Positions 6,078-52,662 of a DNA stretch of 64,000 nt are shown here, piece by piece. A program made the position numbers and the translations under genes. The stretch comes from Escherichia coli (GTDB taxonomy: Bacteria > Pseudomonadota > Gammaproteobacteria > Enterobacterales > Enterobacteriaceae). Position 1 is the stretch's first letter, and each line of letters starts with the position of its first letter. The notes beneath the pieces are model-generated. The model was given only the letters and a program-made list of their open reading frames with translations. It searched no databases and had not been told where the DNA came from. The stretch is from NCBI RefSeq assembly GCF_003334305.1, contig NZ_QOWS01000003.1; one strand, 5' to 3'.

Positions 6078-6091
6078 TTGATGTAGCTCAA
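6078..6091. promoter_or_regulatory. Candidate FNR box (TTGATgtagCTCAA) upstream of nrdD
   Basis: 14-bp match to TTGAT-N4-ATCAA with one mismatch, about 235 bp upstream of the nrdD start; nrdDG is known to be FNR-activated. Confidence 0.3.
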
Positions 6092-6235
6092 AGTAAAAAG
6101 CAGAGCGTACGGATGACGGGCGCTACAGCGTTATGTAAATTTTTTAATGAATTTGCTGGTTGAAAAATCAACAAAAACAACATGCTGACAGACAAAACCC
6201 CGGAATGACAGGCATTCCCGGGGCTTAGCGGATAC

Positions 6236-7891: not shown

Positions 7892-7940
7892 TACGTTATT
7901 CCTGCAAATGCGAGGGGGCGCAATTGCGCCCCGAAGAAAA

Positions 7941-31366: not shown

Positions 31367-32869
31367 TTACCTTCTTCTTCCCCCCAGCAAACTCCCCAAC
31401 ATCCCGCGTACAATCTGATTCGTCACCTGGCGGGCGGCGCTTTTCGCCATTGTTTGCACCACACCATCTTTCTTCCCGCCGCGTGGTCCGGTAGTGCCAA
31501 ACAAAATATCCTTTAATCCACCAAGAATGCCGTCATCCACCGCCACCTCTTTCCCTTTCGCGGGGGGATTATTTTGCTGCTCGGCGCTTGCCTGTACGCC
31601 TTTTTGCAACATCTCATAGGCGGATTCCCGGTCCACCTCATCCTCGTACTTGCCATACACCGGAGAGTGATTAATCAAGCCATTACGCTCATCTTCCGTC
31701 ACCGGTCCCATCCGCGAACAAGGCGCAATCACCATCGCCCGTTCCACCACTGAAGGACTTCCTTTCACATCAAGAAACGAGATTAACGCCTCGCCGGTCC
31801 CCAGTTCCTGGATTGCCTTTTCGGTATCAAATGCCGGATTGGCCCGCATGGTTTGCGCCGCAGCTTTTACCGCTTTCTGATCTTTGGGCGTAAAAGCCCG
31901 CAAAGCGTGTTGAACGCGATTACCGAGCTGCCCGAGCACATTATCCGGAATATCAGACGGGTTTTGCGAAACGAACCAGACGCCTACGCCTTTTGAGCGA
32001 ATAAGCCGTATCACCTGCTCAATCTTATCCAGCAGTACCTGCGGTGCATCGTTAAACAGCAGATGTGCCTCGTCGAAGAAAAACACCAGTTTTGGTTTCT
32101 CCAGATCGCCCGCTTCCGGCAATTGTTCATACAACTCTGAAAGCATCCACAGCAGGCTGGCGGCGTACAGTTTCGGCATCTGATAAAGCTTCTCGGCGCT
32201 GAGGATATTGATAACGCCTTTACCGTTGGTATCGGTGCGCATCCAGTCTTTGATATCCAGCATCGGCTCGCCAAAGAAGTGTGCTGCGCCTTGCTGTTCC
32301 AGCGACAACAGTCCGCGCTGGATGGCACCAACCGATGCGCTACTGATATTACCGTACTGATTCTGGAAAGATTTGGCGTTATCGCCGATGTACTGGGTAA
32401 TCGCCCGCAGATCTTTAAAGTCGAGCAGCAACAATCCCTGATCGTCAGCAATACGGAAGATGATATTCAGCACGCCAGATTGCACATCGTTGAGATTCAA
32501 CAGCCGCGCCAGCAACAGCGGCCCCAGATCCGAAACCGTCGCCCGCACCGGATGGCCTTTCTCGCCAAAGATATCCCACACCACCACCGGATTAGCATGC
32601 GGTTGCCAGTCATTGACGCCGATATTTTTAAGCCTTGCGAGTAGTTTTTCCGATGCCGTTCCTGCCTGCGCGATGCCGGTCAGATCGCCTTTCACATCGG
32701 CCATAAACACCGGAACACCGATTTCCGATAGAGACTCCGCCAGTTTTTGCAGCGTGACAGTTTTACCCGTCCCCGTTGCGCCAGTAATCAGCCCGTGACG
32801 GTTAGCCATTCCCGGCAGTAAAAACAGTTCTGTGTCCGGCGTGCGGGCAATTAACAGGGGTTCGCTCAT
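31367..32869 (-). CDS. yjgR: DUF853 P-loop ATPase YjgR
   Basis: About 500-aa ORF with Walker A GATGTGKT; start set at MSEPLLIAR. Confidence 0.85.
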
Positions 32870-34213: not shown

Positions 34214-34298
34214 GCCGAAGTGGCGAAATCGGTAGACGCAGTTGATTCAAAATCAACCGTAGAAATACGTGCCGGTTCGAGTCCGGCCTTCGGCACCA
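34214..34298 (+). tRNA. leuX: tRNA-Leu (anticodon CAA)
   Basis: 85-nt sequence GCCGAAGTGGCGAAATCGGTAGACGCAGTTGATTCAAAATCAACC...GGTTCGAGTCCGGCCTTCGGCACCA with long variable arm and encoded CCA. Confidence 0.92.
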
Positions 34299-34499: not shown

Positions 34500-35764
34500 A
34501 TGGCTCTGAGTGATGTGAAGGTCCGTTCGGCTAAGCCGGAAGCAAAAGCCTATAAACTTACTGACGGTGAAGGCATGGTTTTGTTGGTCACCCTAATGGC
34601 TCCAAATACTGGCGACTTCGTTATCGTTTTGGCGGTAAGGAGAAGATGCTGGCGCTGGGGAAATACCCTGAAGTCTCGCTGGTCGATGCCAGAGGTCGCC
34701 GGGATGAAGCCCGTAAGTTGTTAGCTAACGGCGTCGATCCTAGTGAGAACAAGAAAGCTGTTAAGGTAGAGCATGAGCAAGAGGTGATAACGTTTGAAGT
34801 GGTAGCCAGAGAGTGGCACGCCAGCAATCAGAAGTGGTCTGCATCGCATAGCGCTCGTGTATTGAAAAGCCTCGAAGATAATCTCTTTGCTGCTATCGGT
34901 AAGCGGAACATTGCTGATCTGAAGACTCGGGATCTGCTTGTCCCCATCAAAGCGGTGGAGTCGTCTGGGCGTCTCGAAGTCGCTGCTCGTTTGCAGCAGC
35001 ATACTACCGCGATTATACGCTTTGCTGTACACAGTGGATTAATCGACTACAACCCCGCTCAAGAGATTGCTGGTGCGGTTGCTACGGCGAAAAGACAGCA
35101 TCGTGCTGCTCTGGAACTTAACCGCATTCCTGAATTGCTTCAACGCATCTATCACTATTCTGGCAGGCCGTTAACCCGACTGGCGGTTGAACTCACATTG
35201 TTAGTTTTCATCCGTTCAAGCGAGTTGCGTTTTGCTCGCTGGTCAGAAGTTGATTTTGATACTGCCATGTGGACGATTCCGGGAGAACGTGAGCCACTGG
35301 AGGGAGTTAAGCATTCTCAGCGTGGTTCGAAGATGCGGACTCCACATCTTGTACCCTTATCTCGACAAGCTCTCACCATTCTGGAAAAAATCAAAAGCAT
35401 GAGTGGAAACCGTGAGCTGATCTTCGTTGGTGATCACGATCCGCGTAAGCCAATGAGTGAGAATACGCTTAACAAGGCCTTGCGAGTGATGGGCTATGAC
35501 ACGAAAACGGAAGTGTGTGGACATGGTTTCAGGACGATGGCGTGTAGTTCTTTGATTGAATCGGGATTGTGGTCGAGGGATGCAGTAGAGCGGCAGATGA
35601 GTCATCAGGAACGTAGCTCAGTACGGGCGGCTTATATCCATAAGGCGGAACATCTTGGGGAGCGAATGTTGATGCTGCAGTGGTGGGCTGATTATCTGGA
35701 TGCGAATAGAATGGCGGCTATCACTCCATTTGACTATGCAAAGATTAATAGTTCTTTTCGATAA
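34500..35764 (+). pseudogene. P4-type tyrosine integrase, frameshifted near the N-terminus
   Basis: N-terminal MALSDVKVRSAKPEAKAYKLTDGEGMVLLVT is in frame 3 and the rest (from ...YRFGGKEKMLALGKYPEVSLVDAR) is in frame 2; join is at a CCC run near 34591-34593; C-terminal catalytic region (HGFR...R...Y) is intact. Confidence 0.75.
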
Positions 35765-35965: not shown

Positions 35966-37435
35966 TCAAATAACTCCAAGCTTTGCATACAATTCTTTTT
36001 TCTCTTTCATGCTGTTATCCAATGGTGCTACTCGCAATGCCGCTTTCAAATAAGCCGCAGCACCAGAGTAATCACGCATTTGCTCGCAAACTAAAATGAG
36101 TTGGCTTAACACATGGAACTTCATTGGAGTTGTTTGGTTTACTTTCTCCAATAGTACTCTTGCTTCAGAATATTTCGCTTCAAGGCCAAGGATAGATGAT
36201 TCTAAATACATGGTGGCCGCGTTTTCTGCTTCAGCTTGCTTTCGTTGCAACAGCCAGAAATTTGCTTGACTGATATTGCGTAACTGTAGGTTTGCCTTAA
36301 CTATCAACTCGAACAAAGCTGCTGGTTGAGTCAATTTACCCTCAAGTAAGATCGCTTTATTATCTTCTACAACTTTTTCAAAGTCGAATAAGCGATTGGC
36401 GCGATACAAGGCAATAAGTTGCTGATGTAAAGCTTGTAGATCTTTACTGCGGCTATACTCCTGCGACGCTAATTGAGCAGCTTTTTGGTAAGATTGATCG
36501 GACATTGCTTCAAGTACCGCACTTGACCAGTCCTGAGCAGGTTTAGTTTGAAAAACGGGAGCAATAGCACCAACTTTTAATTGCTTAGTGGCAGCAGAAT
36601 CAAATGCATGAATTAAGTCGGAAATAGTGGAAAAGCGATCCTCCGCTCGTTTTTGTAAACAAGTAAGAACCACTTGTTCCAGGTCCGTATGAATAGAGCT
36701 ATTAATCTCTGTCGGAAGCTTGAAAGGTGCGTGGCGCTGAACTTGTGCTGGCGTATCATGGGGCAGCTTTCCTGTCAGCAGCTGGTATAGCAAAACACCT
36801 AAGCTATAGATGTCGCCCAATAGTAGCTCTTCCAGGCTGCCTCTACGGCTATCGACGTTGGAGAACTCTGGGGCCGAATACAGCACAGTCCCGCCATTTT
36901 CACGGGTACGAACGTAAATTTCTTCTGGTAAAGCTGAGCTGCCAAAGTCCGTCAACTTCACCAGGTCCCGCTCTCCAACCAAAATGTTATGTGGCTTAAT
37001 ATCTCCATGAGATATTGGTACTGGTAATTCGGCCAAATAATGCACAGCACAGAGCACTTGACGATATATTCTGAACAACCGTTCATAGGTCTGGCCAAAA
37101 TTACGCTGCCTGTCATCGAGCTTTTGCGCCAGGGTTTGGCTGGGAAAATACTCCATTTCAATATAGAACCATTCATTATCTATACGGCCCATATCAAAAA
37201 TTTGCACAATATTTTCGTGCGGCTCGACGTTTAAAAGCTCTTTACCTTCGGCAAGCTGACGGTCTTCCCGAGTAATATCCTTAGGGATTTTTACTGCGAC
37301 AATTTTTCCATCTTTCAGGCGTTCCGCCCGCCATACCCAGCCATGGCTGCCATCACCAAGGCATTCAAGTAACAGGTATTTGTCACCAAGGCGTTTATTC
37401 GTCCCTGGCAAAAAATGTGCTGATTTTATATTCAC
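35966..37435 (-). CDS. Eukaryotic-like (Hanks-type) Ser/Thr protein kinase with helical/TPR-like C-terminal half
   Basis: Gly-rich loop LGDGSHGWVW, VAVK lysine, catalytic loop HGDIKPHNIL, DFG and SAPE motifs; GTG start overlaps the upstream stop (GTGA). Confidence 0.75.
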   Translation of the reverse strand: MNIKSAHFLPGTNKRLGDKYLLLECLGDGSHGWVWRAERLKDGKIVAVKIPKDITREDRQLAEGKELLNVEPHENIVQIFDMGRIDNEWFYIEMEYFPSQTLAQKLDDRQRNFGQTYERLFRIYRQVLCAVHYLAELPVPISHGDIKPHNILVGERDLVKLTDFGSSALPEEIYVRTRENGGTVLYSAPEFSNVDSRRGSLEELLLGDIYSLGVLLYQLLTGKLPHDTPAQVQRHAPFKLPTEINSSIHTDLEQVVLTCLQKRAEDRFSTISDLIHAFDSAATKQLKVGAIAPVFQTKPAQDWSSAVLEAMSDQSYQKAAQLASQEYSRSKDLQALHQQLIALYRANRLFDFEKVVEDNKAILLEGKLTQPAALFELIVKANLQLRNISQANFWLLQRKQAEAENAATMYLESSILGLEAKYSEARVLLEKVNQTTPMKFHVLSQLILVCEQMRDYSGAAAYLKAALRVAPLDNSMKEKKELYAKLGVI

Positions 37436-37974
37436 ATCAACACCTCATAGTGAATTCTGTCCAAAACAATCATGTTCAGGTTTTTGATAAATAAAAAGCG
37501 ACTAAATACCACCTCAACATCAGGAGCGGCGATTACTTGGGTACCCGTGGACGAAGTAAAACCCATACGGCATATGTCTTTCAGTTTTTGAGTATCAGGT
37601 ACACCTACTAAGCCTTGGCTCCAGGCACTGAGGACCAGGGTTTTGGGGCAATGATTCCAGCGCTGTGCTGCTTCCAGTAAGTTTTTTAATTTTTCTTCCA
37701 GCTTTTGCTGCCCCTTCGCTGAACCATCAAAGCGTTCAAATTCGATTAAACACACAGGCGATGCAGAAGATTTATGAAACCAGCCCGAGTCAGAGCGAAT
37801 ATCAGCACCAAATGTCCCTGGAGCCGGGCATTCCACTACCGCCATAAATGACTGTTCATGCCCGAATGTATTCCAAACGCTACAGCCCAGGCTGTGGACC
37901 AATACATCCTGGTCCAATAGCTTACCGCTTGCTAAAAGTGGAAATGTCTCATTTACCCAGGCAACTTCAGGCAT
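37432..37974 (-). CDS. Hypothetical protein (about 180 aa; the listed ORF extends to 38031)
   Basis: ORF translationally coupled between the HerA-like gene and the kinase gene; no motif recognised. Confidence 0.5.
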   Translation of the reverse strand: MPEVAWVNETFPLLASGKLLDQDVLVHSLGCSVWNTFGHEQSFMAVVECPAPGTFGADIRSDSGWFHKSSASPVCLIEFERFDGSAKGQQKLEEKLKNLLEAAQRWNHCPKTLVLSAWSQGLVGVPDTQKLKDICRMGFTSSTGTQVIAAPDVEVVFSRFLFIKNLNMIVLDRIHYEVLM

Positions 37975-37981
37975 AGGCACC

Positions 37982-39667
37982 TTAGCCACTGAAAGAGCCC
38001 CAAACACGCAGTACCTCTGGTGATTCACCACCGTGAATTAATGCCTTACTACCAACTTTAACAAGCAGTGGTGCAGGGATTGAACGACCACACACCAAAG
38101 CTTCACCGGTTGATAAACTCGGGAGTTCCTCCAGATCAGCTTTGCTCACCATATCTGATGCTTTAGCTATAAATCGTTGATCGTCAGGGTTCTTTAAGCG
38201 CATCGTAATTAGCGTATTGCACTGAGAGGTCACATCTGAATCTAATTTCGATGGACGCTGGCTCACAATGCCAAATCCAACGCCAAATTTACGACCTTCA
38301 CCAGCGATCTTTTTAATAATGCGGTGACTGACTGCGTTGCCGCCGGCCGGGGCAAAATTATGACCCTCTTCGTAAATGATAAAGCATGGGCGCAGCGGGT
38401 CCGTTTTGCTCGAGGCTGCTTTTAATATTTCACTAGATAACAGTGCACAAATGACTTGCTTAGCGGTATCACTCAAACCTTGTAAGTCAACAACGACTAA
38501 ACGCCCCTGTTGATTGCTCGGGCGACCCACCATTTTGTAAATATCAGTTGGCTCAGCCATTGTTGCGCTGTAAAAACTTTTAGCTTCATTAAGCACACGT
38601 GAAAGCTTCATCGAGGCGACGGCGGCACTACGGCCTGATAACGCCTTCGCCTCAGCTTCAGAAAGGTCGTCCCACTCTTTTAACTCTTCAATACCATCAC
38701 CTAATAAGAAGCGTAGGCGGTTAATATCTCGTGGCTCAGTCTTATCTGCAGAGCGCCAATAACGAATTGCAACATCGAGTACTCGTTGCTGCGGTTCCGT
38801 TAAGCCAGGTAATATTTCAGCAATATCGTCCATTTCAAAATGGTCAAACTGAAGCGCTAATGGCGTATTCTTACTGGCGTATTTATGTTTAAAAGATTCA
38901 TGCTGCGGCGAGTAAACCTGAATACCTGCACCGGCGGCTTGCAGCTTTTCAAAGGTCTGTTTTATCAGTGGCAGTGCTTCTTGATCACGCTTATCGTCAG
39001 TGGCTTCTAAGAAGCTTGAGAATTGCAGATTACCGCCAGCGAGGGCTTTACCGTATTCACCATGTGGGTCAAATACTACTACCGTACCGTTATTAACCGC
39101 AACTAAACGCTCAATAATGCGGCCAACTGTATAAGACTTACCTGAACCCGTCATTGCCAGAACAGCCAAATGCTCAGTGACCAACTTGTTCACGTCAATA
39201 AAAACAGGAACTGTATTCTCACCTTTGTCGTAGCCTACTAAGTTACCTAAGTGCAAACTGGAGTGTTCATTAAATTCGTAAAAATCACTCAAAAACTGAA
39301 AATCGACGGTTTCAACAGCGGTACCCGGGTTAAGCGGGCGACGTGGAATTTTGATTTGACGAGTAACAGGATCGCGGTAACCAACCAGCTCGACCTGAGC
39401 AAACATATTCTCACCAGTTACATTCGCACCGGGCAAAAGCTCAAGCTCGGTTACACCATCGCCAAAGCCGGCGTTATAGAGCATATTAGTACGGCTTATC
39501 TTGGTCACTCGCCCCAGTACGGCGACTTGCCCCTCATCTTTGCGTTCCTGGTGCATAATGCGTACAAACTCACCACGGCGTACTGAAAACGAGTCTTGTA
39601 CAACCATAGTTAACTGACTGGCATCACCAGTGTTACCGACTAATTTACCTAAAACTTTATAAGCCAT
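37982..39667 (-). CDS. HerA/FtsK-like ATPase
   Basis: Walker A AMTGSGKS, DPHGEY motif, Walker B FIIYEEGHNF, arginine-finger region SQRPSKLD. Confidence 0.75.
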   Translation of the reverse strand: MAYKVLGKLVGNTGDASQLTMVVQDSFSVRRGEFVRIMHQERKDEGQVAVLGRVTKISRTNMLYNAGFGDGVTELELLPGANVTGENMFAQVELVGYRDPVTRQIKIPRRPLNPGTAVETVDFQFLSDFYEFNEHSSLHLGNLVGYDKGENTVPVFIDVNKLVTEHLAVLAMTGSGKSYTVGRIIERLVAVNNGTVVVFDPHGEYGKALAGGNLQFSSFLEATDDKRDQEALPLIKQTFEKLQAAGAGIQVYSPQHESFKHKYASKNTPLALQFDHFEMDDIAEILPGLTEPQQRVLDVAIRYWRSADKTEPRDINRLRFLLGDGIEELKEWDDLSEAEAKALSGRSAAVASMKLSRVLNEAKSFYSATMAEPTDIYKMVGRPSNQQGRLVVVDLQGLSDTAKQVICALLSSEILKAASSKTDPLRPCFIIYEEGHNFAPAGGNAVSHRIIKKIAGEGRKFGVGFGIVSQRPSKLDSDVTSQCNTLITMRLKNPDDQRFIAKASDMVSKADLEELPSLSTGEALVCGRSIPAPLLVKVGSKALIHGGESPEVLRVWGSFSG

Positions 39668-40814
39668 TATTCAATCCCTCATCGAGGCCTGCCAACCACC
39701 CTGCCTCAATATCATTATTCTTTAGTGCCTGGTGTAAACCCTGGCGATAAAACGTAGCAAATTTAGGTAAAATACCAAGCTGTTGATAACCAAGTAATTG
39801 TGGCAACGGCATTGCATTACCTTTGTTTTGCATATCCAGCACCATCAGGCGAGAGGCAACTAAATCGAGATCAGCACTTTTCCATTCTGGTTCGTCACCC
39901 GCTAATTGCACCATTTTTATCTGTCCACCTCGGGCACTACGGAAGTGAAAACCAATTAGACCTTGCTTAGCTTCAATATTGGGTTCAATGCGCTTTTCTT
40001 GTTCAGACAAACGAAATGCGATGGTGCGCGAATAGTTGCCTAAAATGCCATTGATAAATCGCAAATCTCCCACGCCAACCAAACTTTCATCCAGTCCTTC
40101 CAGATTTTGCATCAACTCTTTAGAAAACCCATCAGATGCTAAAATTTGTTTGCGTCCTTGTTCGGTACGTAAATCTTGTTTGGCGATACTTACAATGGCA
40201 CTAAAGCGCTCAGCCAAAATGCTCGCAAGTACTACACCATTTTGATTCCAGGGAAAAATTCTGGAGCGATGGTTTTGCCAAAAAGTTTCTATCACTTGTC
40301 TGGTTTTTTCGTACTCTTGTTTATGACGGACATTTCTCTCCAGCGGAGCCATATCCCGTGCTAAAAACAACGGCGTATCCAGCAAAATTAAATCGCCAGG
40401 CTCATAACCTAAAAGTTTTTTCTCAACTAACTGATAAGCCTGACGAATTTCAATTAAATCAAGCCGTTTACGCTGAGCTTCAAAATCAATATCATCCAGT
40501 TCTGATACCGAGTCGCTACCCACCGTGCTGACTTTATTGTCATCTATTAACAAATCTGTGCGCACTGCTGCACTGGCATAAATAAAACCACCCAATACCT
40601 TGTCTAAGCACGATTTAGTCGCAATACCGGCTACGCGTAAATTAACAATTGTGGGCTTGGGGACCGCTTTCACTAAGCCAGCATCACGGAATAGCGGCGC
40701 CACTTGCTCAATATCACGGACCTGTTTAAGCAAGCGTCCTGCACTTCCCGGTAAGCGAAGCTGGCTATCGATGGCGAGCGATTGCGCTAAATTCATCGTT
40801 TTGTTCTCATTCAT
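39657..40814 (-). CDS. Hypothetical protein (about 385 aa), possible partner of the HerA-like ATPase
   Basis: Coupled ORF (11-nt overlap with the HerA-like start); start set at MNENK; no diagnostic motif recognised. Confidence 0.5.
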   Translation of the reverse strand: MNENKTMNLAQSLAIDSQLRLPGSAGRLLKQVRDIEQVAPLFRDAGLVKAVPKPTIVNLRVAGIATKSCLDKVLGGFIYASAAVRTDLLIDDNKVSTVGSDSVSELDDIDFEAQRKRLDLIEIRQAYQLVEKKLLGYEPGDLILLDTPLFLARDMAPLERNVRHKQEYEKTRQVIETFWQNHRSRIFPWNQNGVVLASILAERFSAIVSIAKQDLRTEQGRKQILASDGFSKELMQNLEGLDESLVGVGDLRFINGILGNYSRTIAFRLSEQEKRIEPNIEAKQGLIGFHFRSARGGQIKMVQLAGDEPEWKSADLDLVASRLMVLDMQNKGNAMPLPQLLGYQQLGILPKFATFYRQGLHQALKNNDIEAGWLAGLDEGLNNGL

Positions 40815-40816
40815 GC

Positions 40817-41692
40817 TTATAGCGTTCCTGTGTGTAGCTGCTCGCCAAGTAATGGGGCATAAGCCCAATATTGCGAGGCTTGTAGGCATGTTTTACCGGT
40901 AGCTGTTATGCCCGCGTCGTCGATAAAATCGTGCTGCCGCAACATCTCACCCCGCTTGACAATATCAAGGCTATTAACATCAAACATCAGCTTAACCGCA
41001 TTATGCTCAGACAACGCTTGTAAGTTCATGCCACCGCCAGCGTAGAGTAATAGCAATACAACTAGATCGTGCTTATCTGGCGTGTAGTCAGTTGATGGCG
41101 CTTTAGGTTCGATTATTCGTTCAGCAATGCCTGCATGGTCCACAAACCAATTCAACCAGCTCACCAGGAGCTCACTATGATCGAGTAAAGTCAGCGACCA
41201 CAAAGGTAACGTGGTAAAGGCTAATAGCCCACTGTTGCTGTGTTTTCGTATGTAGCGGGTATGCACTACATCACCGGCCTGGTGCTGGTAGCGATCTGCG
41301 CTGCCAGTAAAGCCAGCAATAGCCTGGTCTGTTTCACTGGCTAGCAAAGCGGTTAGCCCCGGTTCCTGCCCCCTCAAGCTCGCTGGTACTAACTGCCAAT
41401 CCAGTGGATAGGGCAATTGCGCTAATAAGGTAAATTGTTCTGCTTTCAGGTTTATTACCAAAGCGGCACAACCTGCCTGCATAGCCCAGTGATACAGGTG
41501 CTGCATAGTATTAGCGTCAGTCAACTCTTCTGCTTGCACTATTAACAAACCGCTGGCTGGCGGCGAGCTAATCCAATCCTTCATTAAGGGGGTAGCCCCC
41601 GCAACAGTTTGCAAAAAACGGCCTTTACGATTACTGGCCAGTGCCGCAGATAAATAACGACTCATCGCGTCACCTCTACAAACCAGTGGCAA
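40817..41692 (-). CDS. Hypothetical protein (about 290 aa)
   Basis: Coupled ORF overlapping the stop of the 1428-aa gene; no motif recognised. Confidence 0.5.
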   Translation of the reverse strand: MPLVCRGDAMSRYLSAALASNRKGRFLQTVAGATPLMKDWISSPPASGLLIVQAEELTDANTMQHLYHWAMQAGCAALVINLKAEQFTLLAQLPYPLDWQLVPASLRGQEPGLTALLASETDQAIAGFTGSADRYQHQAGDVVHTRYIRKHSNSGLLAFTTLPLWSLTLLDHSELLVSWLNWFVDHAGIAERIIEPKAPSTDYTPDKHDLVVLLLLYAGGGMNLQALSEHNAVKLMFDVNSLDIVKRGEMLRQHDFIDDAGITATGKTCLQASQYWAYAPLLGEQLHTGTL

Positions 41693-44600
41693 AGGTAAGG
41701 CGCATTTTTACAATGCCTTTGTCTACAAGTCCTTTCTGTTGCTCAGGTGTTAACACGGGTTCCTGATTTTGGCTCAAAGCCTTATAAATCGGTTGCCAAT
41801 CCGCCAGTGTTAAGCCTGTATCATTTAATATTTGCTCACCTTGACTCTGCCATTTGGCCTGGGTGCTTTCACACACCTGTTGAAGTTCTCTGACACCCAA
41901 ATTGCTCACATCCTCCAGAGTCAACGCTGCTGGTTCCGCTTGCTTTTGAGAAGCCAATAGCGGTTTTAATAACGGCAGCCAGCTGTTTACCTGTGCGATG
42001 GAGTTGCGTCTTACTTGGTTTAGACGCTCTTCAATTTTAAGTAGCTGGCCTTGAATCGGTGTAAGTTGACCGCGTGCCGGTTTTAAAAGCTCTTCTGGTA
42101 AATCCCGTAACGATGAAAACTGCCCATTGCGCAAACTGTTTTGCATACTTTGACGCTTGCTCTCTGCATCACTGGGGAGATCGGCAATAGCATCTTCAAT
42201 GAGCTGTAATTTCATTACCAGTTTTGGTAGCTCTGCAATGTCATCGGCGAACTGATACTCAGCCGTGGCGCTACTAAGCCATTCTTGCAGTTGTTGTGCA
42301 CGTAGTTTTTGCTCTGTGAGGTTATTAACCAGCTTACTAAATCGTTCTTTGCAGTTGCGGTAGCTGGACAAAATATGCCCCTGAATCTCCGCTATCGGCA
42401 ACTGTTGATCATTGTGCAGGTTTAAACCCACTTCTTGCGCTAAGGCTGAAAGCTTGTCATGCGCTCTACCTAAATCGAGTTTACGCAGGTAATGCAGTAA
42501 GGTATCGCTATCTGCTTGCTGCTCTTTTCGGCCAGTGGCACTGCTGGTATCGTCTTTTAACGCTCCATCTAAAATATGACCTATGGTGCGCAGCGTGTTG
42601 GTGTACAGACGTTTCGGAAAATTCGTCAGCGGGGCACACTCTGTTTCAACATCTATGATTAAATCAACGAGTCGGTTGTTGATACGCTCAGCGCTGCACT
42701 CAACAAACTCGGCAAATAAACAGGCCTGTTCAATCCGTTGATAAAGCGAGGTCGTTTTGTCTTCTAAGCTGAGAATATGGGCATCTTTTAGCATAGGCCT
42801 GGAACTATTAAGCGGTTTAACCTTTGCTACCAGCTCCAGCACTTCAGCGCGTTTGTGGATAAGCCCTGCCAATACTTTCGTGTCGTTGGCCTCGACCATA
42901 TCAGCCAATTGTTCTTCTTGCTGTTTGAGCACGTTAAATAGCGATTGTGCTTTTTCCAGCTGCTCTTTAGCTTCCACGGTGACGAAACCCAGCTTATTTT
43001 TACCCAGTGGCGCGAACATTTCATTAATGCGTGCATAACCATACACGCGGCTCATGACTTCCACATTGGCTGCATAGCTGCCCATATCGTTACCACGGAA
43101 CCAGTTTTGCGCTTCTCTAATGGCATTTTCTAAGCGGGAGCGCGGGTAGTGCTCCCAAATTGCCTGTTTTTCTGTTGGATTGGTTAAAGTGAGTAAGTTC
43201 AGCTCTCCACACCACCACATCCAGTCATTAAACACGCCTTTGGCGGTAACACTCGTTTCAGCCACATAGGCGAAATAAAACTGTTGCTTAAAGCCTTCGA
43301 ATTGCCACTTGTGCTTTTTATTAGGGTGAGCAATACGGGCTAAAAATAATGGGATCTGCGCCTGGCTTCGCTGCACATTATTAAGTTCAGTAAATAGCCC
43401 GGCATGTTCATCGGCAGTGTAACCTTTGGCAATATAGCTGCCCGGCACCTTAAGTTTATCCAACAAGCTGCTCAGCTCATTCACTGGCACGCCGTGTTGC
43501 TGCTGTAAATCGAGAATGCCATTTAACTCAGGGTGAGCAATGGCCAGCTGATACCAGCCTTTAAACAACAGGTCTCGGTCATTCGGTGATAATTTACCAT
43601 CTACCTTTAACGGCCAGGCAATTAAACCGCGCTGCTGCAAACGCTGGCGCCACTTGTGAATGGCATCCGTGGCAAAGGTTGTCAGGGCATGCAGCTTGTT
43701 TTTGAATTTCGCGGTAAAGCTGTCGGCAGTTAAATTCACGCCGTGCAACTGACATGCTGCCAAACTTAAGCCAATACGCTCTAACTGGTCTGCTTCGCTT
43801 GGGTTGACATAATGCAGCAGTATCGCATCACGCAACTCATTTCTTTCATCCAGTCGGCTGTATTGCTCCATGAGATGTGCAGAAGCAGTTAACGCTAATA
43901 CTGGCGTGCGACCATTTTGGTGGCTGTGGTTTGCCGCAAAGGTGTGAAGATTGTTCAGCTCAATTAGGTTGCTGACCCAGGCAAACAAGGCTTTACCTTC
44001 TGGGTGAAGCTTAAATCCATCCAGGGTAAGTAAACCACCCTGGCGGCCACGGGGCTCGGTTAAAATGGCCAAAGGTGCATCGTCGCTGCCCGCTTTATTA
44101 CTCAGCAAGTTTTCATCATAGGTCCAGTTGTTATCAAGTAATCTCACAAAGCCCGTTACACGGGCTAATGCCTTGATGAGCGGCTTCTGGCTACTTTGTT
44201 TGCTAAGTTCACTCATTGCCTGTTCATGAGCGTCGCCCATGGCGGGATCTTTAAAAATCAGTGAGTTTTGCTGGGCACTGCGATAGCGCAAATCCAGGCG
44301 CAGTAACATCGCCACACTGGGGCCAATATGCGTTGCTTCGCTGGCGTCCAGTTCGGTAGTTTCACCCACTAGCTTGTGCCATAAGGCATCGGCAGCGAAT
44401 TCAATCGCTGGGTGGTCATACAGCAAGCTGAGTAAGTATTTAAACTCACCTTTTGACAGAGGTAGTAATACCGCGCCTTTATCGCCGCTTGCGGCTTGTT
44501 CTTTAATTGAAAAAGTACGCAGGTTATCCAGCAAAGTATCTAAGTTCAGCGCTTGATCTACTGCAGGGTAGTACCATTCATCTTTATCGCGGCGGAATTT

Positions 44601-45962
44601 GGCTTGCTCCAGGGCTTGTCGGCACTGTAGGCGGTCAATGCTCAGTTTGCGGTAATGAGCGGCTATGGGTTCCAGATCTTCGTTTTTCAGCGCCAGCAAT
44701 TCTGTGGCATAGCCCATTTCAGCTAAGCGCACGGGTAATTGGCCGTAGAGCAAACTACGACATTCGGTCAATAGTGCCTGGTCGCGAGTTTGAATGCCTT
44801 CTATCGCGCCTTTATCCAGCACATGCCTGGCTACGCGGCCAGAGCCTGCCAGCACAGCTTCAAATAAATCGCCCACATCCTTGATACTGCGGCCTGCTTG
44901 TTGGTATTGGCTCAGCACTGCATCCACATTAGCCATGACCACGTTAAACCAACCGAAGTTGGCACCACTCATGGCGTATGCAGCTTCCACTAAACCAGCA
45001 GGGTAATTAAAACCCAGCTTGCCGTCTTTTAAGAGGCTTGCCACATAGTCTGATACATCGGCAAAGGCATTATGCTCAAGTTCCACTAACTCAAAGCGGC
45101 GTGCGACCGATTGAATTTCGCGCAATTGCTGGCCAAGCAGTGGTGAACACAGCGCTACATAGCGCAACCATGGAAGTTTACGGCGAGGGTCTTCCTCTTT
45201 AATTGCTTTACCAATCAGGCGAATGGCCTGGCCATCGAGGCGTTTATTTTGTTCATCTTCCAGGCCAAAGGTGGCGGCTTCTGCAACGGTTTCCAGCTCA
45301 TCCAGCACCACCAACATATACTGCACGCCAAAGCTCTTTAATACTTTATAGGCGGCTTGCACCAAACTGACTACCAGCGTTTGGTCAGTATAGAGGTCTT
45401 CTTCGCTGTGGTTGGCGTTCAGCTGTAAGGCATCTGCTAACAGTTCAGATTTAAAGCCAAATGGCATTAAGCGTTCATAGGCTTGTTTGGCAATTTCACT
45501 TTGAATCGATCCATCAAAGGTTTGGGTGGCCAGTGGTAATAGCGCCTGATATAAACCAAAAGCAAACCAGTTATCCGAGTTTTGATAATCTGATGCCACT
45601 TGCGAGTAGCGAATGTAGAGCGCCAGGTATTTGTCTTGCGTGTCGCGATTAAACAGCTGCTTATCGTGCAGTTGGCCTTGTTCGTCGCGGACAAACCAGC
45701 CCCTTGAACAGTCGTTAATTTGTGCAACCAATTCATGGCCTAAACGTGATTTACCCCGACCCCATTCGGCTTCGACGGCAAACACATGGGCAAAGCGATC
45801 ATCGTCGTGATCCACCGTATGCAAAAAGGTTTGAAAGCGTTTAAAAAAGCGGCTCTGGCCCACTAACGGGTCGCGAGGTGGATAATCTGATACGCCCGTC
45901 GCCGCCCAGCGATGTTGTTTTGCCAGGCTATCAACCATCTGTTCGTTTAATTCAAAACTCAT
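41676..45962 (-). CDS. Large (1428 aa) P-loop NTPase-domain protein
   Basis: Walker A-like VEAEWGRGKS and Walker B-like YMLVVLDELE in the N-terminal 250 aa; the long remainder has no recognisable motifs; ATGA overlap with the upstream gene. Confidence 0.6.
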   Translation of the reverse strand: MSFELNEQMVDSLAKQHRWAATGVSDYPPRDPLVGQSRFFKRFQTFLHTVDHDDDRFAHVFAVEAEWGRGKSRLGHELVAQINDCSRGWFVRDEQGQLHDKQLFNRDTQDKYLALYIRYSQVASDYQNSDNWFAFGLYQALLPLATQTFDGSIQSEIAKQAYERLMPFGFKSELLADALQLNANHSEEDLYTDQTLVVSLVQAAYKVLKSFGVQYMLVVLDELETVAEAATFGLEDEQNKRLDGQAIRLIGKAIKEEDPRRKLPWLRYVALCSPLLGQQLREIQSVARRFELVELEHNAFADVSDYVASLLKDGKLGFNYPAGLVEAAYAMSGANFGWFNVVMANVDAVLSQYQQAGRSIKDVGDLFEAVLAGSGRVARHVLDKGAIEGIQTRDQALLTECRSLLYGQLPVRLAEMGYATELLALKNEDLEPIAAHYRKLSIDRLQCRQALEQAKFRRDKDEWYYPAVDQALNLDTLLDNLRTFSIKEQAASGDKGAVLLPLSKGEFKYLLSLLYDHPAIEFAADALWHKLVGETTELDASEATHIGPSVAMLLRLDLRYRSAQQNSLIFKDPAMGDAHEQAMSELSKQSSQKPLIKALARVTGFVRLLDNNWTYDENLLSNKAGSDDAPLAILTEPRGRQGGLLTLDGFKLHPEGKALFAWVSNLIELNNLHTFAANHSHQNGRTPVLALTASAHLMEQYSRLDERNELRDAILLHYVNPSEADQLERIGLSLAACQLHGVNLTADSFTAKFKNKLHALTTFATDAIHKWRQRLQQRGLIAWPLKVDGKLSPNDRDLLFKGWYQLAIAHPELNGILDLQQQHGVPVNELSSLLDKLKVPGSYIAKGYTADEHAGLFTELNNVQRSQAQIPLFLARIAHPNKKHKWQFEGFKQQFYFAYVAETSVTAKGVFNDWMWWCGELNLLTLTNPTEKQAIWEHYPRSRLENAIREAQNWFRGNDMGSYAANVEVMSRVYGYARINEMFAPLGKNKLGFVTVEAKEQLEKAQSLFNVLKQQEEQLADMVEANDTKVLAGLIHKRAEVLELVAKVKPLNSSRPMLKDAHILSLEDKTTSLYQRIEQACLFAEFVECSAERINNRLVDLIIDVETECAPLTNFPKRLYTNTLRTIGHILDGALKDDTSSATGRKEQQADSDTLLHYLRKLDLGRAHDKLSALAQEVGLNLHNDQQLPIAEIQGHILSSYRNCKERFSKLVNNLTEQKLRAQQLQEWLSSATAEYQFADDIAELPKLVMKLQLIEDAIADLPSDAESKRQSMQNSLRNGQFSSLRDLPEELLKPARGQLTPIQGQLLKIEERLNQVRRNSIAQVNSWLPLLKPLLASQKQAEPAALTLEDVSNLGVRELQQVCESTQAKWQSQGEQILNDTGLTLADWQPIYKALSQNQEPVLTPEQQKGLVDKGIVKMRLTFATGL

Positions 45963-47260
45963 AACGACGATCCTTGAAGGTTTATTCTATTGGCGGCGCG
46001 TTTTTTATTGGCATAGCAGTTTTGCGCCAGTTGCTTAATGGTCCGTTGTAACGTTTGGCTTTTGTAGCCAAATAGTGGTGCTAACGGCAGGCTATAACAG
46101 GCATCGCTGAAGCTTGTATGAATTCGATATTGGCCGGCCTCTCCACGACCCGCCTCGGTAAATTGCCAGATTTTTTTTGCCAACAATTCGGCAATGAATG
46201 AGCTCAGGACGCGGTTTAGGCGGTTGATGCTTTCCGTGTTCGCATCGAGTGCCGGGTAGAGGGGTATATTGAGCTCACCGAGCAGAAGCACAAGAAACTC
46301 GGCCAAACTACCCAGACTCACCTCATCACCTTCAATGCCCTGTACCGCCACATTTATTTGACCGGGGGCAAAGGCATTTTGCCCGGCAGGTAAGGTGAGC
46401 AACAAACCGCCACGTTGCTCGGCAGCCCAGGCATCTTGCACAAAGATAATTAGACTGAGTAAAAATAACCAGGGCTGTTGGGCGAATAGCTCGGTAAGCG
46501 GCATGTTGTCATGACCCGAGCGGGACACCAATAACCAATCGGCATTGGGTTTAAGGTTATGTTCATCAAGCAAGGTATTAGGGAGTGCTAACAACCGCCC
46601 ACTACACCAGTTATTTGTCAGTTGTTTTGCGGTGACATCCACCGCTTGTATAGGTGCCGGTGGTTCATTTTGTTCGCTCACGGTAAACAAGGTATAGCTG
46701 GTGCGCAAAATACGACATAGCGCGGGAATGGCAGCATTGTCGTTTAGGCTATGACCGAGCAAATCGCGTTCGGTTTGTGCCAGAGGGCCGGCAATGATTT
46801 GCGGCGTGGTGGCAGTGCTTTCCAGCTGGGCTAAGACCCATTCACTGGCATTGCCCAGTTGCTGAATGAGTTTAACCAATACCATTGTGTCACTCATCGT
46901 GCCTGCTTCCTGGCAGCGAGCGGCGGCTAAATTGATCCAATGTTGGCGAACATCTGGGTTTAAGCCCAACAACGCTAATTGCCATTCACCTGACTGGCTT
47001 AAATCGTTAAAGGCATCAAGCAATGGTGCAGTGAGGCTAAAGGCGCTAACGATATCCGTTTCAGCGTCGTTCTTTTTCGGCTGTATTATTGGTTGTAGCA
47101 GTGACCTAAGGGCAGGCACAGCCGCCAATAACAATGCTGCTTTGTTGGCGTTCAAACCACCTTGTTGCCAAAGCTGCAGGCAGAGGTTAAGTGCCGCTTC
47201 GCTATTTACGGGGTCGTTATATTGCCTGGTTGTACTGCTGTCCGTGCCCCTTGTCTCCAT
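45959..47260 (-). CDS. Hypothetical protein (433 aa)
   Basis: Coupled ORF between the HsdS-like gene and the 1428-aa gene; no motif recognised. Confidence 0.5.
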   Translation of the reverse strand: METRGTDSSTTRQYNDPVNSEAALNLCLQLWQQGGLNANKAALLLAAVPALRSLLQPIIQPKKNDAETDIVSAFSLTAPLLDAFNDLSQSGEWQLALLGLNPDVRQHWINLAAARCQEAGTMSDTMVLVKLIQQLGNASEWVLAQLESTATTPQIIAGPLAQTERDLLGHSLNDNAAIPALCRILRTSYTLFTVSEQNEPPAPIQAVDVTAKQLTNNWCSGRLLALPNTLLDEHNLKPNADWLLVSRSGHDNMPLTELFAQQPWLFLLSLIIFVQDAWAAEQRGGLLLTLPAGQNAFAPGQINVAVQGIEGDEVSLGSLAEFLVLLLGELNIPLYPALDANTESINRLNRVLSSFIAELLAKKIWQFTEAGRGEAGQYRIHTSFSDACYSLPLAPLFGYKSQTLQRTIKQLAQNCYANKKRAANRINLQGSSL

Positions 47261-47262
47261 CT

Positions 47263-48741
47263 TTACTCTTCAGCCTCCGCTTGCGCCGCCTCTTCCAGCA
47301 AACTGTATAACTCATCCACATCGCTAAATAGCGGTGTGGCACCTTCAATGGCATAACCCTCAGCGCTCAGTTTGCTTAAAATCGCTTGATCAAAGCTGCT
47401 GTCGCCATCTTCCAGGGCTTGTTGGGCCTGGATTAGTTGTTGCTCAGTCAGTTGGCCTTCGATTAATGACTCAACTAGAGTTTTGGCAGATGCTGTTAAC
47501 TTTTTTGCATATGCTGCCGTAGTAACGGCTAGTCTCAGCTTACTTCCTATTTCTCTATTCTTCGCTATGTCAATCGGAATCAGAATATTTAACAGGTTTT
47601 CTGAAGTCACTTTTGGTACAACGCTGCCAGTAGTCACACCTTTCCAACACGGAAAGTGTTTATCCAGGAACCTACAAATAGACTCAATATCATATTCATC
47701 TTTTACCTTTAAAACCCAAACATGGTTGTTTGCCCAAAACTTTCCATCAGCTACATTTGCACAGCCAATAGAGCCATCTTGCGCAATAATCAGATATTTA
47801 CCGTTGAAATTGAATTCGGTATGAGTATCTATTGGACCTGATGCGCCATAGTAAAAATATGGTCCGGGTACTCTGTCTTCCGATTTAATAGGGTCGCCAC
47901 ATTTGCATTTACTAATGAAATTAGATAGTTTTGATGAATTCCTAAAGGTCATTTGACTATCGGCCGCACGTGCAAACTCAGGAGCTAAAGACACTGCTGA
48001 TAATACCTGTTGTTTCATTCTTCTAGGTTTCAATGTTAATGAATCAACAAGGTTGAAGTGAAATAAATCTTTAATTTTTCTATCAGCCATTCCTTCAAGT
48101 CGTTTCGCCCAAGCGCGTAACTGCTCGGCTTGGCGAACTTTATCCCCGATGTATTTTTGGGCTAGAGGTAAAACTTTAGGAACCGCTAGCGAGCGGACAC
48201 TTGGGAAGTCAATTGCAGGGCGAGTTGCGCCATATGCTTCCTTCCAGATCGCTACTTGTCCGGTTTTGCTATTCAAATATGCCACCAAGAAATAGGCGTC
48301 AACTTTTTTGGGATCGGGCTTGAATCTGACTGAGTGCTGACTAATGTTGGCCGGTAGATGTTTAGCTGACACAACAGCCGATTTACCAAATTTTGCACCA
48401 GTAATCGTAAGTAAAACGTCGCCATCCACTAATCGGCTGCGCTTTAATTTTTCATCATCTTCATCGTTAATAAAAACAGCTTCTTCAGCTTGCAAGAACA
48501 TTTCTTCAACTTCAGAAGTGCGATAAAACTTAACACGGCCTTTTTCTAAATAATTTGCTCCTAAAGGTGTTGCGCCACTAGCCACCCCGCGCTTTGAATC
48601 AATTACCGCTTCTAGGGGCAAAGCACCTAGGTTGTCTTTTATCTTATTAATTTGTCTTTCAAATCGCGGTTGATAGTGCCAAGGATCAATCCGCCTTTCA
48701 GACAATTGTTCGGGTGTTCTTTTAAAAATAGTTGCCATCAC
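47263..48741 (-). CDS. hsdS: Type I restriction-modification specificity subunit (HsdS-like, two target-recognition domains)
   Basis: Two TRD-like halves (RIDPWHYQP...GDVLLTITGAKFGKSAVV; VPGPYFYYGASGPIDT...) separated by a conserved helical spacer (LAVPKVLPLAQKYIGDKVRQAEQL) with a C-terminal helical region; 4-nt overlap with the MTase gene. Confidence 0.7.
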   Translation of the reverse strand: MMATIFKRTPEQLSERRIDPWHYQPRFERQINKIKDNLGALPLEAVIDSKRGVASGATPLGANYLEKGRVKFYRTSEVEEMFLQAEEAVFINDEDDEKLKRSRLVDGDVLLTITGAKFGKSAVVSAKHLPANISQHSVRFKPDPKKVDAYFLVAYLNSKTGQVAIWKEAYGATRPAIDFPSVRSLAVPKVLPLAQKYIGDKVRQAEQLRAWAKRLEGMADRKIKDLFHFNLVDSLTLKPRRMKQQVLSAVSLAPEFARAADSQMTFRNSSKLSNFISKCKCGDPIKSEDRVPGPYFYYGASGPIDTHTEFNFNGKYLIIAQDGSIGCANVADGKFWANNHVWVLKVKDEYDIESICRFLDKHFPCWKGVTTGSVVPKVTSENLLNILIPIDIAKNREIGSKLRLAVTTAAYAKKLTASAKTLVESLIEGQLTEQQLIQAQQALEDGDSSFDQAILSKLSAEGYAIEGATPLFSDVDELYSLLEEAAQAEAEE

Positions 48742-50935: not shown

Positions 50936-51322
50936 CTAATTTATCAGTACCAGCAAGGGGCCTTTAATCTCTATCTGCGCGTGCTTCTGTGCCAGTTTGC
51001 GTATCTGCTGTTCACTGGTCGTAATACCAGCAGGGAGCTTTTTCAGTACTTGTGCAAGGGGCATGCGCCCACCAGCTTGATGCAACAATGATACCAAATG
51101 TGCCGCGATATCAGGTATAACCTGGTACGTTGCCGTTGTGGGCCCTTTTAGATGATTACTTTGAGGCAATGAGGCAAGCCATAGCGAAACTTGAGACTGG
51201 CTAAAGCCAAGTGTTTGCCAGAGGGTTTGGTTCTCATTAAATACAACGGCGGCGCTTCTGGGAGTTGCTGTTTGCTGAGTTATTAGTTGTTCCAGGCTTT
51301 GTCGCTGGTATTCATGGGTCAT
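50936..51322 (-). CDS. Hypothetical protein (128 aa), third gene of the McrBC-like module
   Basis: ORF whose start overlaps the McrC-like stop by 4 nt; no motif recognised. Confidence 0.45.
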   Translation of the reverse strand: MTHEYQRQSLEQLITQQTATPRSAAVVFNENQTLWQTLGFSQSQVSLWLASLPQSNHLKGPTTATYQVIPDIAAHLVSLLHQAGGRMPLAQVLKKLPAGITTSEQQIRKLAQKHAQIEIKGPLLVLIN

Positions 51323-52662
51323 CTCATGCCTCCACTATAGGATACTGAAGCAGCCATCCGATCCAGTTTGGGGCTCATTGTACAGGACACGTCATTCGGC
51401 CACATCATCCTCTCACCGCGTTTTGCCATTATCCGGTATGGCACAACCCATAATTTTAAAGTCTCCGAGAAAGCAAAATGCTGCGCTATAGGTTGGCTAA
51501 AGTCATCATGCGCAGGGTAAATCAGATACATTTCGCCATTCCCACCAAGATATTTTTGTCCGTAGGCAAACATTTGATAGAAGTCAGCTTGTGCCAGTCC
51601 ATAGAGTGATTTTGTCTGCTGGCTGCTATTCACCAGCTTCCATTTTGTATCCATCACCATTTCGGTTTGAACTGGTTTGTGTGATTGAATCAGCAAGTCG
51701 GGGCGAAGCTTAAAGCAATCTTTAAGTCCATGCTTTACCAAAGAATAAGTTGCTGCTTGAGGTAAAACTTTGAGGTGAGGTGGTAACTCGTCGGGTAGGG
51801 TCTGTGCCACAAAGGATTCAAATACCGCTTCCATAGGGAACAAAAGTGATATCGCTTTGGTGTTTCCCTGCAAAGCACTCGGGCTCATTCCCCTCAGGAT
51901 CAATTGCGCCCATGCCATTGGCTCGTTGTAATGAGCCATACCACGCTCGAGGCGTAAGTTGTTTATATCACGTTCAATATCCCGGCTAAGTGGAATACCG
52001 TCAAACGCAAAACGCAGTTCGTAAAGCCAGCGTTGATTATCTGATGACAGCTGCAGACTAAGAAGCTTATCTAGTGCGGAGTGTAAGAGCCGATTGGCTG
52101 CACAATCAGGCATGTAGTCATCATAATCGACACAAAACTTATGGCGATTCACCGCGTTATGTCGCAGCTGTGCAGAAAGCATCAGCTTGCCCTTCATAAA
52201 AGCCAGATTACCTTGCTTGCTCACATAGTCGGAGCGTAAACCCTGTTTAAGCAATTGGCTGACGCTATGCAAAAACTGGTTAATAAAAATCTCAAGCAAA
52301 GGCATACGCTGAGCCTGAAGAGTGGCTTGCTGGGTTTGAATATGTCGGAACCCAGGCAGATGGCTTAGCATCGTCAGCAATGTTTGACGTGCATTAGCCG
52401 CTGTGAGGTTTTTACCAACCTTGGGCAGTATCTCAAGCTGGAAACCGTGAGGTGTTGAAAGCATCCCTGCGTAGTTTTGAACCTGAAGCAATTTGAAGCC
52501 TGAGCGAGAGGTGAGTTTGAGGAACTGGCTCCCTTGATTACTTGCCAGGCTAAGCGCTTCTAAATAATTAAAGACCTGTGGAGGCACCGGTTTTGCGCCA
52601 ACTGAAGCCGCTTTTCCACTCCCCAAGAGGTCATATTCAAAAACGGAGATAACTTCACCCAT
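51319..52662 (-). CDS. McrC-like endonuclease subunit (PD-(D/E)xK)
   Basis: C-terminal RPDLLIQ...VMDTKWK...QADFYQMFAYGQKY resembles the McrC catalytic core; 8-nt overlap with the McrB-like gene. Confidence 0.65.
   Translation of the reverse strand: MGEVISVFEYDLLGSGKAASVGAKPVPPQVFNYLEALSLASNQGSQFLKLTSRSGFKLLQVQNYAGMLSTPHGFQLEILPKVGKNLTAANARQTLLTMLSHLPGFRHIQTQQATLQAQRMPLLEIFINQFLHSVSQLLKQGLRSDYVSKQGNLAFMKGKLMLSAQLRHNAVNRHKFCVDYDDYMPDCAANRLLHSALDKLLSLQLSSDNQRWLYELRFAFDGIPLSRDIERDINNLRLERGMAHYNEPMAWAQLILRGMSPSALQGNTKAISLLFPMEAVFESFVAQTLPDELPPHLKVLPQAATYSLVKHGLKDCFKLRPDLLIQSHKPVQTEMVMDTKWKLVNSSQQTKSLYGLAQADFYQMFAYGQKYLGGNGEMYLIYPAHDDFSQPIAQHFAFSETLKLWVVPYRIMAKRGERMMWPNDVSCTMSPKLDRMAASVSYSGGMR

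Follow-up and report, generated by a model that had tools for sequence, protein, structure and literature searches.

Within a 64,000-nucleotide stretch of Escherichia coli chromosomal DNA (contig NZ_QOWS01000003.1 of RefSeq assembly GCF_003334305.1, hereafter the window), we have analyzed three adjacent genes coding for a HerA/FtsK-type ATPase of 561 amino acids (aa), a 385-aa protein with a predicted NurA fold, and a small protein with a predicted restriction endonuclease (REase) fold. These are genes 8 to 10 (NurA-like, HerA, and small REase-like) of a ten-gene cassette that codes, in order, for a 128-aa protein, an HsdM-family methylase, an HsdS specificity subunit, proteins of 433, 1428, and 282 aa, the NurA-like protein, HerA, the REase-like protein, and a Ser/Thr kinase (Table 1). 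The coordinates are those of the open reading frames listed for the window, together with the RefSeq annotation of an E. coli genome that is 100% identical; the 11.4 kb of the window that were compared are 100% identical to E. coli strain A7 (NZ_CP028767) and to many further strains. From the junction of the methylase and specificity genes through to the kinase, the gene ends overlap or are separated by no more than 10 nucleotides, the REase-like gene and the kinase gene sharing 4 nucleotides where the one stops and the other starts, and the sole wider gap in the cassette is one of ~50 nucleotides between the 128-aa gene and the methylase gene. A scan for promoters and terminators 3' of the kinase gene found none.

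Table 1. The ten-gene cassette and the associated tRNA and recombinase genes in the window
Feature	Position	Strand	Remarks
128-aa cassette leader protein	50936..51322	-	madl2-like
HsdM-family N6-adenine DNA methyltransferase, 715 aa	48738..50885	-	madl3-like
Type I-like specificity subunit HsdS	47263..48738	-	madl4-like
433-aa protein	45959..47260	-	madl5-like; fastest-evolving member
1428-aa P-loop NTPase	41676..45962	-	madl6-like; long helical C-terminal part
282-aa protein	40817..41665	-	madl7-like; fast-evolving
NurA-fold protein, 385 aa	39657..40814	-	madl8-like; predicted HerA partner, probably catalytically inactive
HerA/FtsK-type hexameric ATPase, 561 aa	37982..39667	-	madl9-like
Small PD-(D/E)xK (restriction-endonuclease-fold) protein	37432..37989	-	madl10-like; candidate nuclease effector
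Ser/Thr protein kinase, 489 aa	35966..37435	-	madl11-like; C-terminal helical/TPR-like region
tRNA-Leu(CAA), leuX	34214..34298	+	ARAGORN; island integration site; context, outside the system
Frameshifted tyrosine recombinase	34500-35764	+	Two overlapping open reading frames; pseudogene in RefSeq annotation; adjoins leuX

A preliminary description of these genes had recognized the hallmarks of HerA in the 561-aa protein, and the four motifs it quoted are present in the translation (within LAMTGSGKS, FDPHGEY, YEEGH, and SQRPS). Database matches agree, with PADLOC HerA at 1e-56, NCBIfam helicase_HerA at 6e-59 (under the equivalog cut-off), and as nearest PDB sequences the Thermococcus HerA of a HerA-NurA complex (4e-48) and the HerA of S. 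solfataricus (6e-33). With its Walker A and B motifs, arginine-finger region, and significant HerA profile matches the protein is a member of the HerA clade, and the E. coli protein shares 82-87% identity with its orthologues in Desulfonema, Pseudomonas, and Methylocaldum. A second, unrelated HerA-type ATPase is encoded less than 6 kb from the three genes by yjgR (31367-32869, minus strand), a core gene outside the island that carries the cassette and annotated as 'helicase HerA-like C-terminal domain-containing protein'.

Neither of the proteins encoded next to HerA had been assigned a motif, and neither matches any family in Pfam, PADLOC, or NCBIfam; for the 385-aa protein this holds in Pfam even at E <= 10, the NurA family included. 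The 385-aa protein has 277 homologues, with at least 62% identity among those listed, in Enterobacterales, Vibrio, Pseudomonas, Acinetobacter, Methylocaldum, Paraburkholderia, and Desulfonema, some of which are named 'NurA domain-containing protein' in UniProt. The fold of its AlphaFold model is that of NurA (RNase H-like), with PIWI, EndoV, and RNase H among the lower-ranked matches. A profile of its close family gave nothing meaningful against PDB sequences, and an exhaustive profile search of 1.84 billion representatives recovered 123 members of the NurA-like family, none of which bridges to a canonical NurA with the catalytic aspartate. When the profile was broadened with a wider alignment of 25 full-length members (identity down to 14%), it gave a single match among PDB sequences, the NurA of S. 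solfataricus (E = 0.054).

In S. solfataricus NurA the catalytic residues are D58, E116, and D133, with K202 and Y298 as further active-site residues, and the hydrophobic patch that binds HerA lies around I295 and F300 (PMC3326311). Using the HMMER alignment together with the predicted strands to map these positions onto the E. coli protein, we find that D58 corresponds to A65, where all members of the family have A, S, or T. The surrounding positions 61-69, which form strand beta1 of the model, read V,[A/S/N],G,[I/V/L],[A/S/T],[T/S/G],x,S,[C/...] in 35 close homologues, and acidic residues are absent from this stretch in all 35 and likewise in the 25 distant members. The segment Y298-P-F300-P aligns with M335-P336-L337-P338, the equivalent of Y298 being M or L, and the equivalent of E116 shows no conservation across the wider family. 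D146, at the end of beta4, is the equivalent of D133 and is nearly invariant. Within the catalytic set (D58/E116/D133 with Y298 and K202) the D133 equivalent is the only residue conserved, as judged from a weak alignment and predicted strands. P336 and P338 are invariant family-wide, and this P-x-P motif lies in the segment by which NurA docks onto HerA.

Because the beta1 aspartate, the essential D58 in NurA, is missing, the NurA-like protein is probably not the cutter. It has kept the fold and the HerA-docking segment, and has lost both the beta1 aspartate and the active-site tyrosine; we therefore think it fairly probable, on these sequence features, that it acts as a non-cutting partner of HerA. 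Such a role has a precedent in the D58A mutant of S. solfataricus NurA, which is nuclease-dead and still stimulates unwinding by HerA (PMC3326311). A complex of the NurA-like protein with HerA is predicted from the adjacency of the genes, their 11-nucleotide overlap, and the conservation of the P-x-P motif. The NurA-like proteins of E. coli and the other taxa share 66-68% identity.

These observations bear directly on an alternative in which the cassette performs canonical HerA-NurA resection, the NurA-like protein being an active 5'-3' nuclease and the small protein an accessory factor, which might for instance sense DNA ends or modification or nick the DNA to open entry sites. The strong match to the NurA fold, the proximity of the HerA to NurA-associated HerAs, the near-invariance of D146, and an acidic cluster from D101 to E112 that is invariant in the close subfamily are all in its favor. 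We nonetheless regard it as unlikely, since the residue whose replacement kills the S. solfataricus nuclease is absent from every close and distant member aligned, the position of the active-site tyrosine is occupied by Met or Leu, and beyond the close homologues the equivalent of E116 varies.

The small protein has two possible starts, an ATG at 37974 that gives 180 aa and a GTG at 37989 that gives 185 aa, and the longer form agrees with many of its homologues. There are 115 of these, co-occurring with the NurA-like family. The AlphaFold model (predicted local distance difference test score, pLDDT, 92.5; predicted template modeling score, pTM, 0.90) has an alpha-beta-beta-beta-alpha-beta core. 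BstYI, BglII, HamA, Can2, and Shedu are among the lower-ranked structural matches of the model. Foldseek gives a weaker result, in which restriction enzymes again come first, the top match being BstEII (E = 4e-3; none reaches E <= 0.001); the family profile gave nothing meaningful against PDB sequences. Strand beta1 contains the invariant E53 and strand beta3 the invariant E83-F-E85 (in 185-aa numbering); D63, which precedes beta2 by two residues, is also invariant, as are K96 and K100 of the helix that follows beta3. D63 and E83-x-E85 occupy the sites of the canonical PD...(D/E)xK motif, and with the core topology, an aspartate at the start of beta2, and a (D/E)-x-(K/E) in beta3, the protein has the features of the PD-(D/E)xK superfamily. 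The active site of BamHI is composed of D94, E111, and E113, and the E-x-E variant in the small protein resembles it. We suggest from the model that the small protein is a BamHI-like nuclease and a better candidate for the cutter than the NurA-like protein. Its orthologues in the other taxa are 45-52% identical to the E. coli protein.

The proposal in the preliminary description was that HerA and its neighbors form a helicase-nuclease module, with one of the neighbors as the effector, and it would have lost its footing if neither neighbor had a nuclease or effector fold. Both have predicted nuclease folds, NurA and REase, but the three genes do not constitute a self-contained pair of motor and nuclease, being part of a ten-gene operon. 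As to the effector, the small REase-fold protein is the likelier candidate, while the NurA-like protein, the canonical partner of HerA, is probably not a cutter.

To place the three genes in context we compared the cassette with five other loci in four other taxa, namely Desulfonema limicola (Deltaproteobacteria), Pseudomonas sp., P. aeruginosa, and Methylocaldum. All have the same gene order, which is thus conserved across phyla, with a small protein followed by M, S, proteins of ~400, ~1430, ~280, ~380, 561, and ~190 aa, and a kinase of ~490 aa. The NurA-like and small protein families are distributed among Gamma-, Beta-, and Deltaproteobacteria with gene order constant in the loci examined; homologues in several classes together with this constant order indicate that both are real genes. 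The cassette is also present in Klebsiella, Salmonella, Vibrio, Acinetobacter, and P. aeruginosa. Among complete E. coli genomes the three-gene module was found in 253 of 5426 (~4.7%; 254 records), and in 252 of the 254 records the three genes are at least 99% identical to those in the window.

The specificity gene behaves differently. Among the 211 E. coli genomes with a match, only 36 match over at least 80% of its length, and many of the matches cover one half of the gene or the conserved spacers, some spanning the first 61% and others ~15-20%. This pattern indicates classic swapping of target-recognition domains (TRDs) under diversifying selection, and because the S gene is a mosaic among carriers, many recognition specificities presumably exist within this one species. 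The HsdS protein matches PADLOC Specificity_I at 8e-164, and the methylase matches PADLOC MTase_I (PDLC03023) over its full length with 1577 bits and is named 'HsdM family class I SAM-dependent methyltransferase' by the Prokaryotic Genome Annotation Pipeline (PGAP). The HsdM-family methylase, an HsdS with two TRDs, and the exchange of TRDs between strains are shared with Type I restriction-modification systems, which consist of HsdM, HsdS, and HsdR. The cassette differs in that it contains no HsdR-like gene (a superfamily 2 helicase-nuclease), and has seven other genes after those for M and S.

Of the remaining members of the cassette, the kinase has PADLOC mad6 as its best match (1e-45), followed by PD-T4-6 (1e-39). 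Its glycine loop and its VAVK, HGD..N, DFG, and APE motifs do not vary among five orthologues, and to judge from them the protein is apparently an active Ser/Thr kinase; the E. coli kinase is 56-61% identical to its orthologues in the other taxa. The 1428-aa protein has a Walker A motif (GRGKS) and a Walker B motif (VVLDELE) in its translation. KAP NTPase, below threshold (E = 0.36), is its lone Pfam match, and neither the protein alone nor its profile has a significant match among PDB sequences; identity to orthologues in other taxa is 50-56%. In Methylocaldum sp. SAD2 (locus at 3728-9171) the corresponding slot is occupied by two gene calls of 386 and 1229 aa with a gap of ~600 nucleotides, and the 1428-aa gene may be disrupted in this strain. 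No match to the 282-aa protein was found in Pfam, PADLOC, NCBIfam, or, by profile, among PDB sequences, and it occupies the same position in every locus examined with 28-34% identity. The 433-aa protein, with 24-39% identity to its orthologues, likewise has no family match in Pfam, PADLOC, or NCBIfam. Desulfonema has a counterpart of the 128-aa leader, likewise encoded before its methylase (28% identity, E = 5e-15), and Pseudomonas has a 132-aa gene in this position, matched by position alone. A record of the leader gene also exists from the laboratory strain E. coli W.

The cassette as a whole can be related to MADS-like, an 11-gene candidate system (madl1-madl11) of Pseudomonas aeruginosa mentioned in the supplementary notes of a preprint (bioRxiv 10.1101/2023.03.30.534895). 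Its predicted components include a WYL regulator (madl1), a methylase (madl3), an S subunit (madl4), an ATPase (madl6), a helicase/translocase (madl9), and a kinase (madl11), and four of the madl proteins are without any prediction (bioRxiv 10.1101/2023.03.30.534895). From madl1 to madl11 the order is WYL regulator, small protein, N6-methylase, S subunit, one hypothetical protein, large ATPase, two hypothetical proteins, HerA-type translocase, a further hypothetical protein, and kinase. The Pseudomonas sp. locus L008 has exactly this architecture (BrxR/WYL-132-M-S-422-1428-275-380-561-192-kinase) with orthologues of the E. coli proteins, the P. aeruginosa locus has the MADS-like order likewise, and those Pseudomonas sp. 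proteins that were compared (L003, from the same genome record) are 30-87% identical to their E. coli counterparts. The E. coli cassette corresponds to madl2-madl11, as matched by gene content and order to a system known by its description in the preprint only; it differs in that the WYL gene (madl1) is missing and that McrBC-family genes lie directly upstream instead. The cassette itself had already been noticed, and what the present analysis adds is the assignment of two members to the NurA and REase folds and the observation that the aspartate of NurA is missing. That supplementary mention was the only one we found in a search of the literature for experimental study of the cassette, and the comparative-genomics papers on HerA 'capture' systems describe no NurA-kinase-methylase cassette.

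MADS itself (mad1-mad8) is an eight-gene methylation-associated anti-phage system of P. aeruginosa SMC4386, experimentally demonstrated, whose genes are needed to resist phages and which phages escape epigenetically; Mad7 is DptG-like, Mad3 OLD/AbiEii-like, and Mad4 a DUF4276 protein (bioRxiv 10.1101/2023.03.30.534895). Its authors define it by a MacSyFinder model with the MAD6 kinase, MAD7 (DptG-like), and MAD8 (HerA-like) as mandatory components. MADS and the cassette have a methylase, S subunit, Ser/Thr kinase, and HerA-like ATPase in common, and the HerA matches PADLOC mad8 (7e-26) while the S and M proteins have weak PADLOC matches to mad5 and mad2. The cassette has instead the NurA-fold and REase-fold proteins, the 1428-aa P-loop protein, and two further proteins. 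We reject an assignment of the locus to MADS, as equivalents of Mad7, Mad3, and Mad4 are absent (no PADLOC match, and no NCBIfam MADS model for the remaining proteins) and the NCBIfam MADS scores are far under their cut-offs (117 bits against 460 for MADS6 with the kinase; 112 against 720 and 90 against 400 for the others). A relationship to DndFGH/DptFGH or BREX is rejected as well, there being no PADLOC matches to the components of those systems and no such cassette in the papers on HerA 'capture' systems.

Our preferred interpretation, which we hold with moderate confidence, is that the HerA, NurA-like, and REase-like proteins are the motor-nuclease arm of a ten-gene restriction-like defense operon, the E. 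coli version of the candidate MADS-like system. HsdM and HsdS would methylate a strain-specific bipartite site and thereby mark self DNA, and unmethylated sites on incoming DNA would license its action, the M-S complex and the 1428-aa P-loop protein being the probable intermediaries, with the fast-evolving 433-aa and 282-aa proteins as candidate sensors or adaptors. HerA, as a hexamer that carries a dimer of the NurA-like protein as its cap, would then load onto the foreign DNA and pump it; the cap, having lost the beta1 aspartate, would mainly activate and guide HerA in the manner of the S. solfataricus D58A mutant, and the DNA would be cut by the small BamHI-like protein through its invariant D63 and E83-x-E85. 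The kinase may gate or amplify the response. The three proteins would in this way together stand in for HsdR, the translocase-nuclease that Type I systems have and the cassette lacks, and the combination of a cassette with no HsdR, swapped TRDs in the S gene, and a near-identical effector trio supports behavior of the restriction-modification kind. The surroundings are also those of a defense locus, namely a leuX island with an integrase pseudogene, McrBC-family genes, and an adjoining HNH endonuclease that binds phosphorothioate DNA. More tentatively, and with somewhat greater doubt than belief, we propose that the cassette represents a distinct class of ATP-dependent restriction, in which an M-S pair without HsdR is combined with HerA and a dead NurA cap, a BamHI-like mini-nuclease, and control by a kinase and a giant P-loop protein.

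Several points weigh against this interpretation. D58 was mapped by means of predicted secondary structure and of an HMMER alignment whose N-terminal segment is weak (domain score 2 bits), and an acidic cluster (D101, D107, D108, D110, and E112) that is invariant in the close subfamily lies beside D146; this cluster may build a non-canonical metal site with which the NurA-like protein could still cut. Contact among the three proteins is proposed solely from gene order and the NurA-HerA precedent, and the preprint names MADS-like as a candidate only (bioRxiv 10.1101/2023.03.30.534895).

We have also considered that the operon might be an abortive infection or toxin system, in which the kinase or the nucleases strike host targets upon infection and methylation has only a regulatory role. 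The presence of a methylase with a variable S subunit argues rather for direct discrimination of self and foreign DNA, and the epigenetic escape of phages from the related MADS is what restriction rather than abortive infection would predict, so we regard this as very unlikely. The least probable of the explanations is that the three genes are a module for DNA repair or island maintenance, for example in double-strand-break resection, that merely rides with an orphan Type I methylase and has no function in defense. HerA-NurA is indeed best known from the resection of double-strand-break ends in archaea and Deinococcus. However, in none of the five other loci do the three genes occur without those for M, S, the kinase, and the P-loop protein, the cassette resides on integrase-bearing islands beside other restriction genes, the diversification of S is typical of restriction specificity, and the nearest profile matches are to components of MADS.

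The restriction-like arrangement that we favor can be set against other systems that employ HerA. The archaeal and Deinococcus HerA-NurA machinery for end resection differs in that the partner in the cassette is without equivalents of the catalytic D58 and of Tyr298, there are no Mre11/Rad50 genes here, the genes form a methylase-kinase operon on a mobile island, and an extra REase-fold gene is present. In TdpAB, a HerA-like TdpA is combined with a NurA-like TdpB in the phosphorothioate-linked TdpABC system, whereas the self-mark of the cassette is predicted to be N6-adenine methylation by HsdM/S; the cassette adds the REase-fold, kinase, and P-loop components, and the sequence relationship is distant. 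The two-gene defense systems Sir2-HerA and DUF4297-HerA share with the cassette a HerA encoded with an adjacent effector, and PADLOC HerA models match; NCBIfam HerA_antiphage also matches (1e-38 and 3e-32), scoring 133 against an equivalog cut-off of 850. The cassette contains neither a Sir2 nor a DUF4297 effector, and has ten genes that include a methylase.

To us the most interesting point is that what is apparently a NurA pseudo-enzyme occurs together with a separate mini-nuclease. If the cassette does represent a distinct class of restriction, this would be the first NurA pseudo-enzyme and the first recruitment of HerA-NurA as the restriction arm of a methylation-based system. HerA-based defense (Sir2-HerA, DUF4297-HerA, TdpAB, DndH) and methylation-linked systems (BREX, DISARM, MADS) are active fields, and in several of these systems it is unclear which component does the cutting. 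Two MADS-like proteins that had no prediction gain concrete predicted roles, one as a NurA-fold partner of HerA, apparently without its catalytic aspartate, and the other as a small protein of REase fold in which the acidic motif is intact. The cassette would offer a genetically tractable model of a HerA motor coupled to epigenetic discrimination of self and foreign DNA, and since it is carried by about one in twenty complete E. coli genomes, it may affect host range in phage therapy and the uptake of plasmids.

The island that carries the cassette is inserted at leuX, directly past the core genes yjgR and ahr, and across the junction the GC content falls from ~54% to ~46%. Its recombinase is frameshifted, and the island is therefore probably immobilized in the present strain. 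Immediately upstream of the cassette, on the same minus strand, are genes of the McrC (447 aa) and McrB (691 aa) families at 51319-54730; the end of the McrC gene and the beginning of the 128-aa leader gene share 4 nucleotides, and co-transcription of the two Mcr genes with the MADS-like operon is possible. The island has a third gene of restriction type (54900-55772, minus strand), which is annotated by PGAP as a phosphorothioated-DNA-binding restriction endonuclease and matches PADLOC HNH at 4e-25. Type IV restriction genes are also present on the P. aeruginosa islands that carry MADS-like (bioRxiv 10.1101/2023.03.30.534895).

In other hosts the cassette is flanked by different defense-type genes. 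Downstream of it in Desulfonema limicola (locus at 14914-21131) are genes for an AAA_15/AAA_21 ATPase and for two further proteins, one of 197 aa and one of more than 1500 aa. In Pseudomonas sp. (L003/L008) the cassette is followed by an Mrr-type restriction gene and preceded by NERD-UvrD and SACS/NOV_C genes. IS66 and IS21 elements are found just 3' of the kinase gene in Methylocaldum sp. SAD2. Elsewhere in the window, and unrelated to the cassette, a patch of low GC content (37%) at 18600-20200 coincides with a pseudogene, a frameshifted 'DNA-binding protein' gene that lies between tabA and argF.

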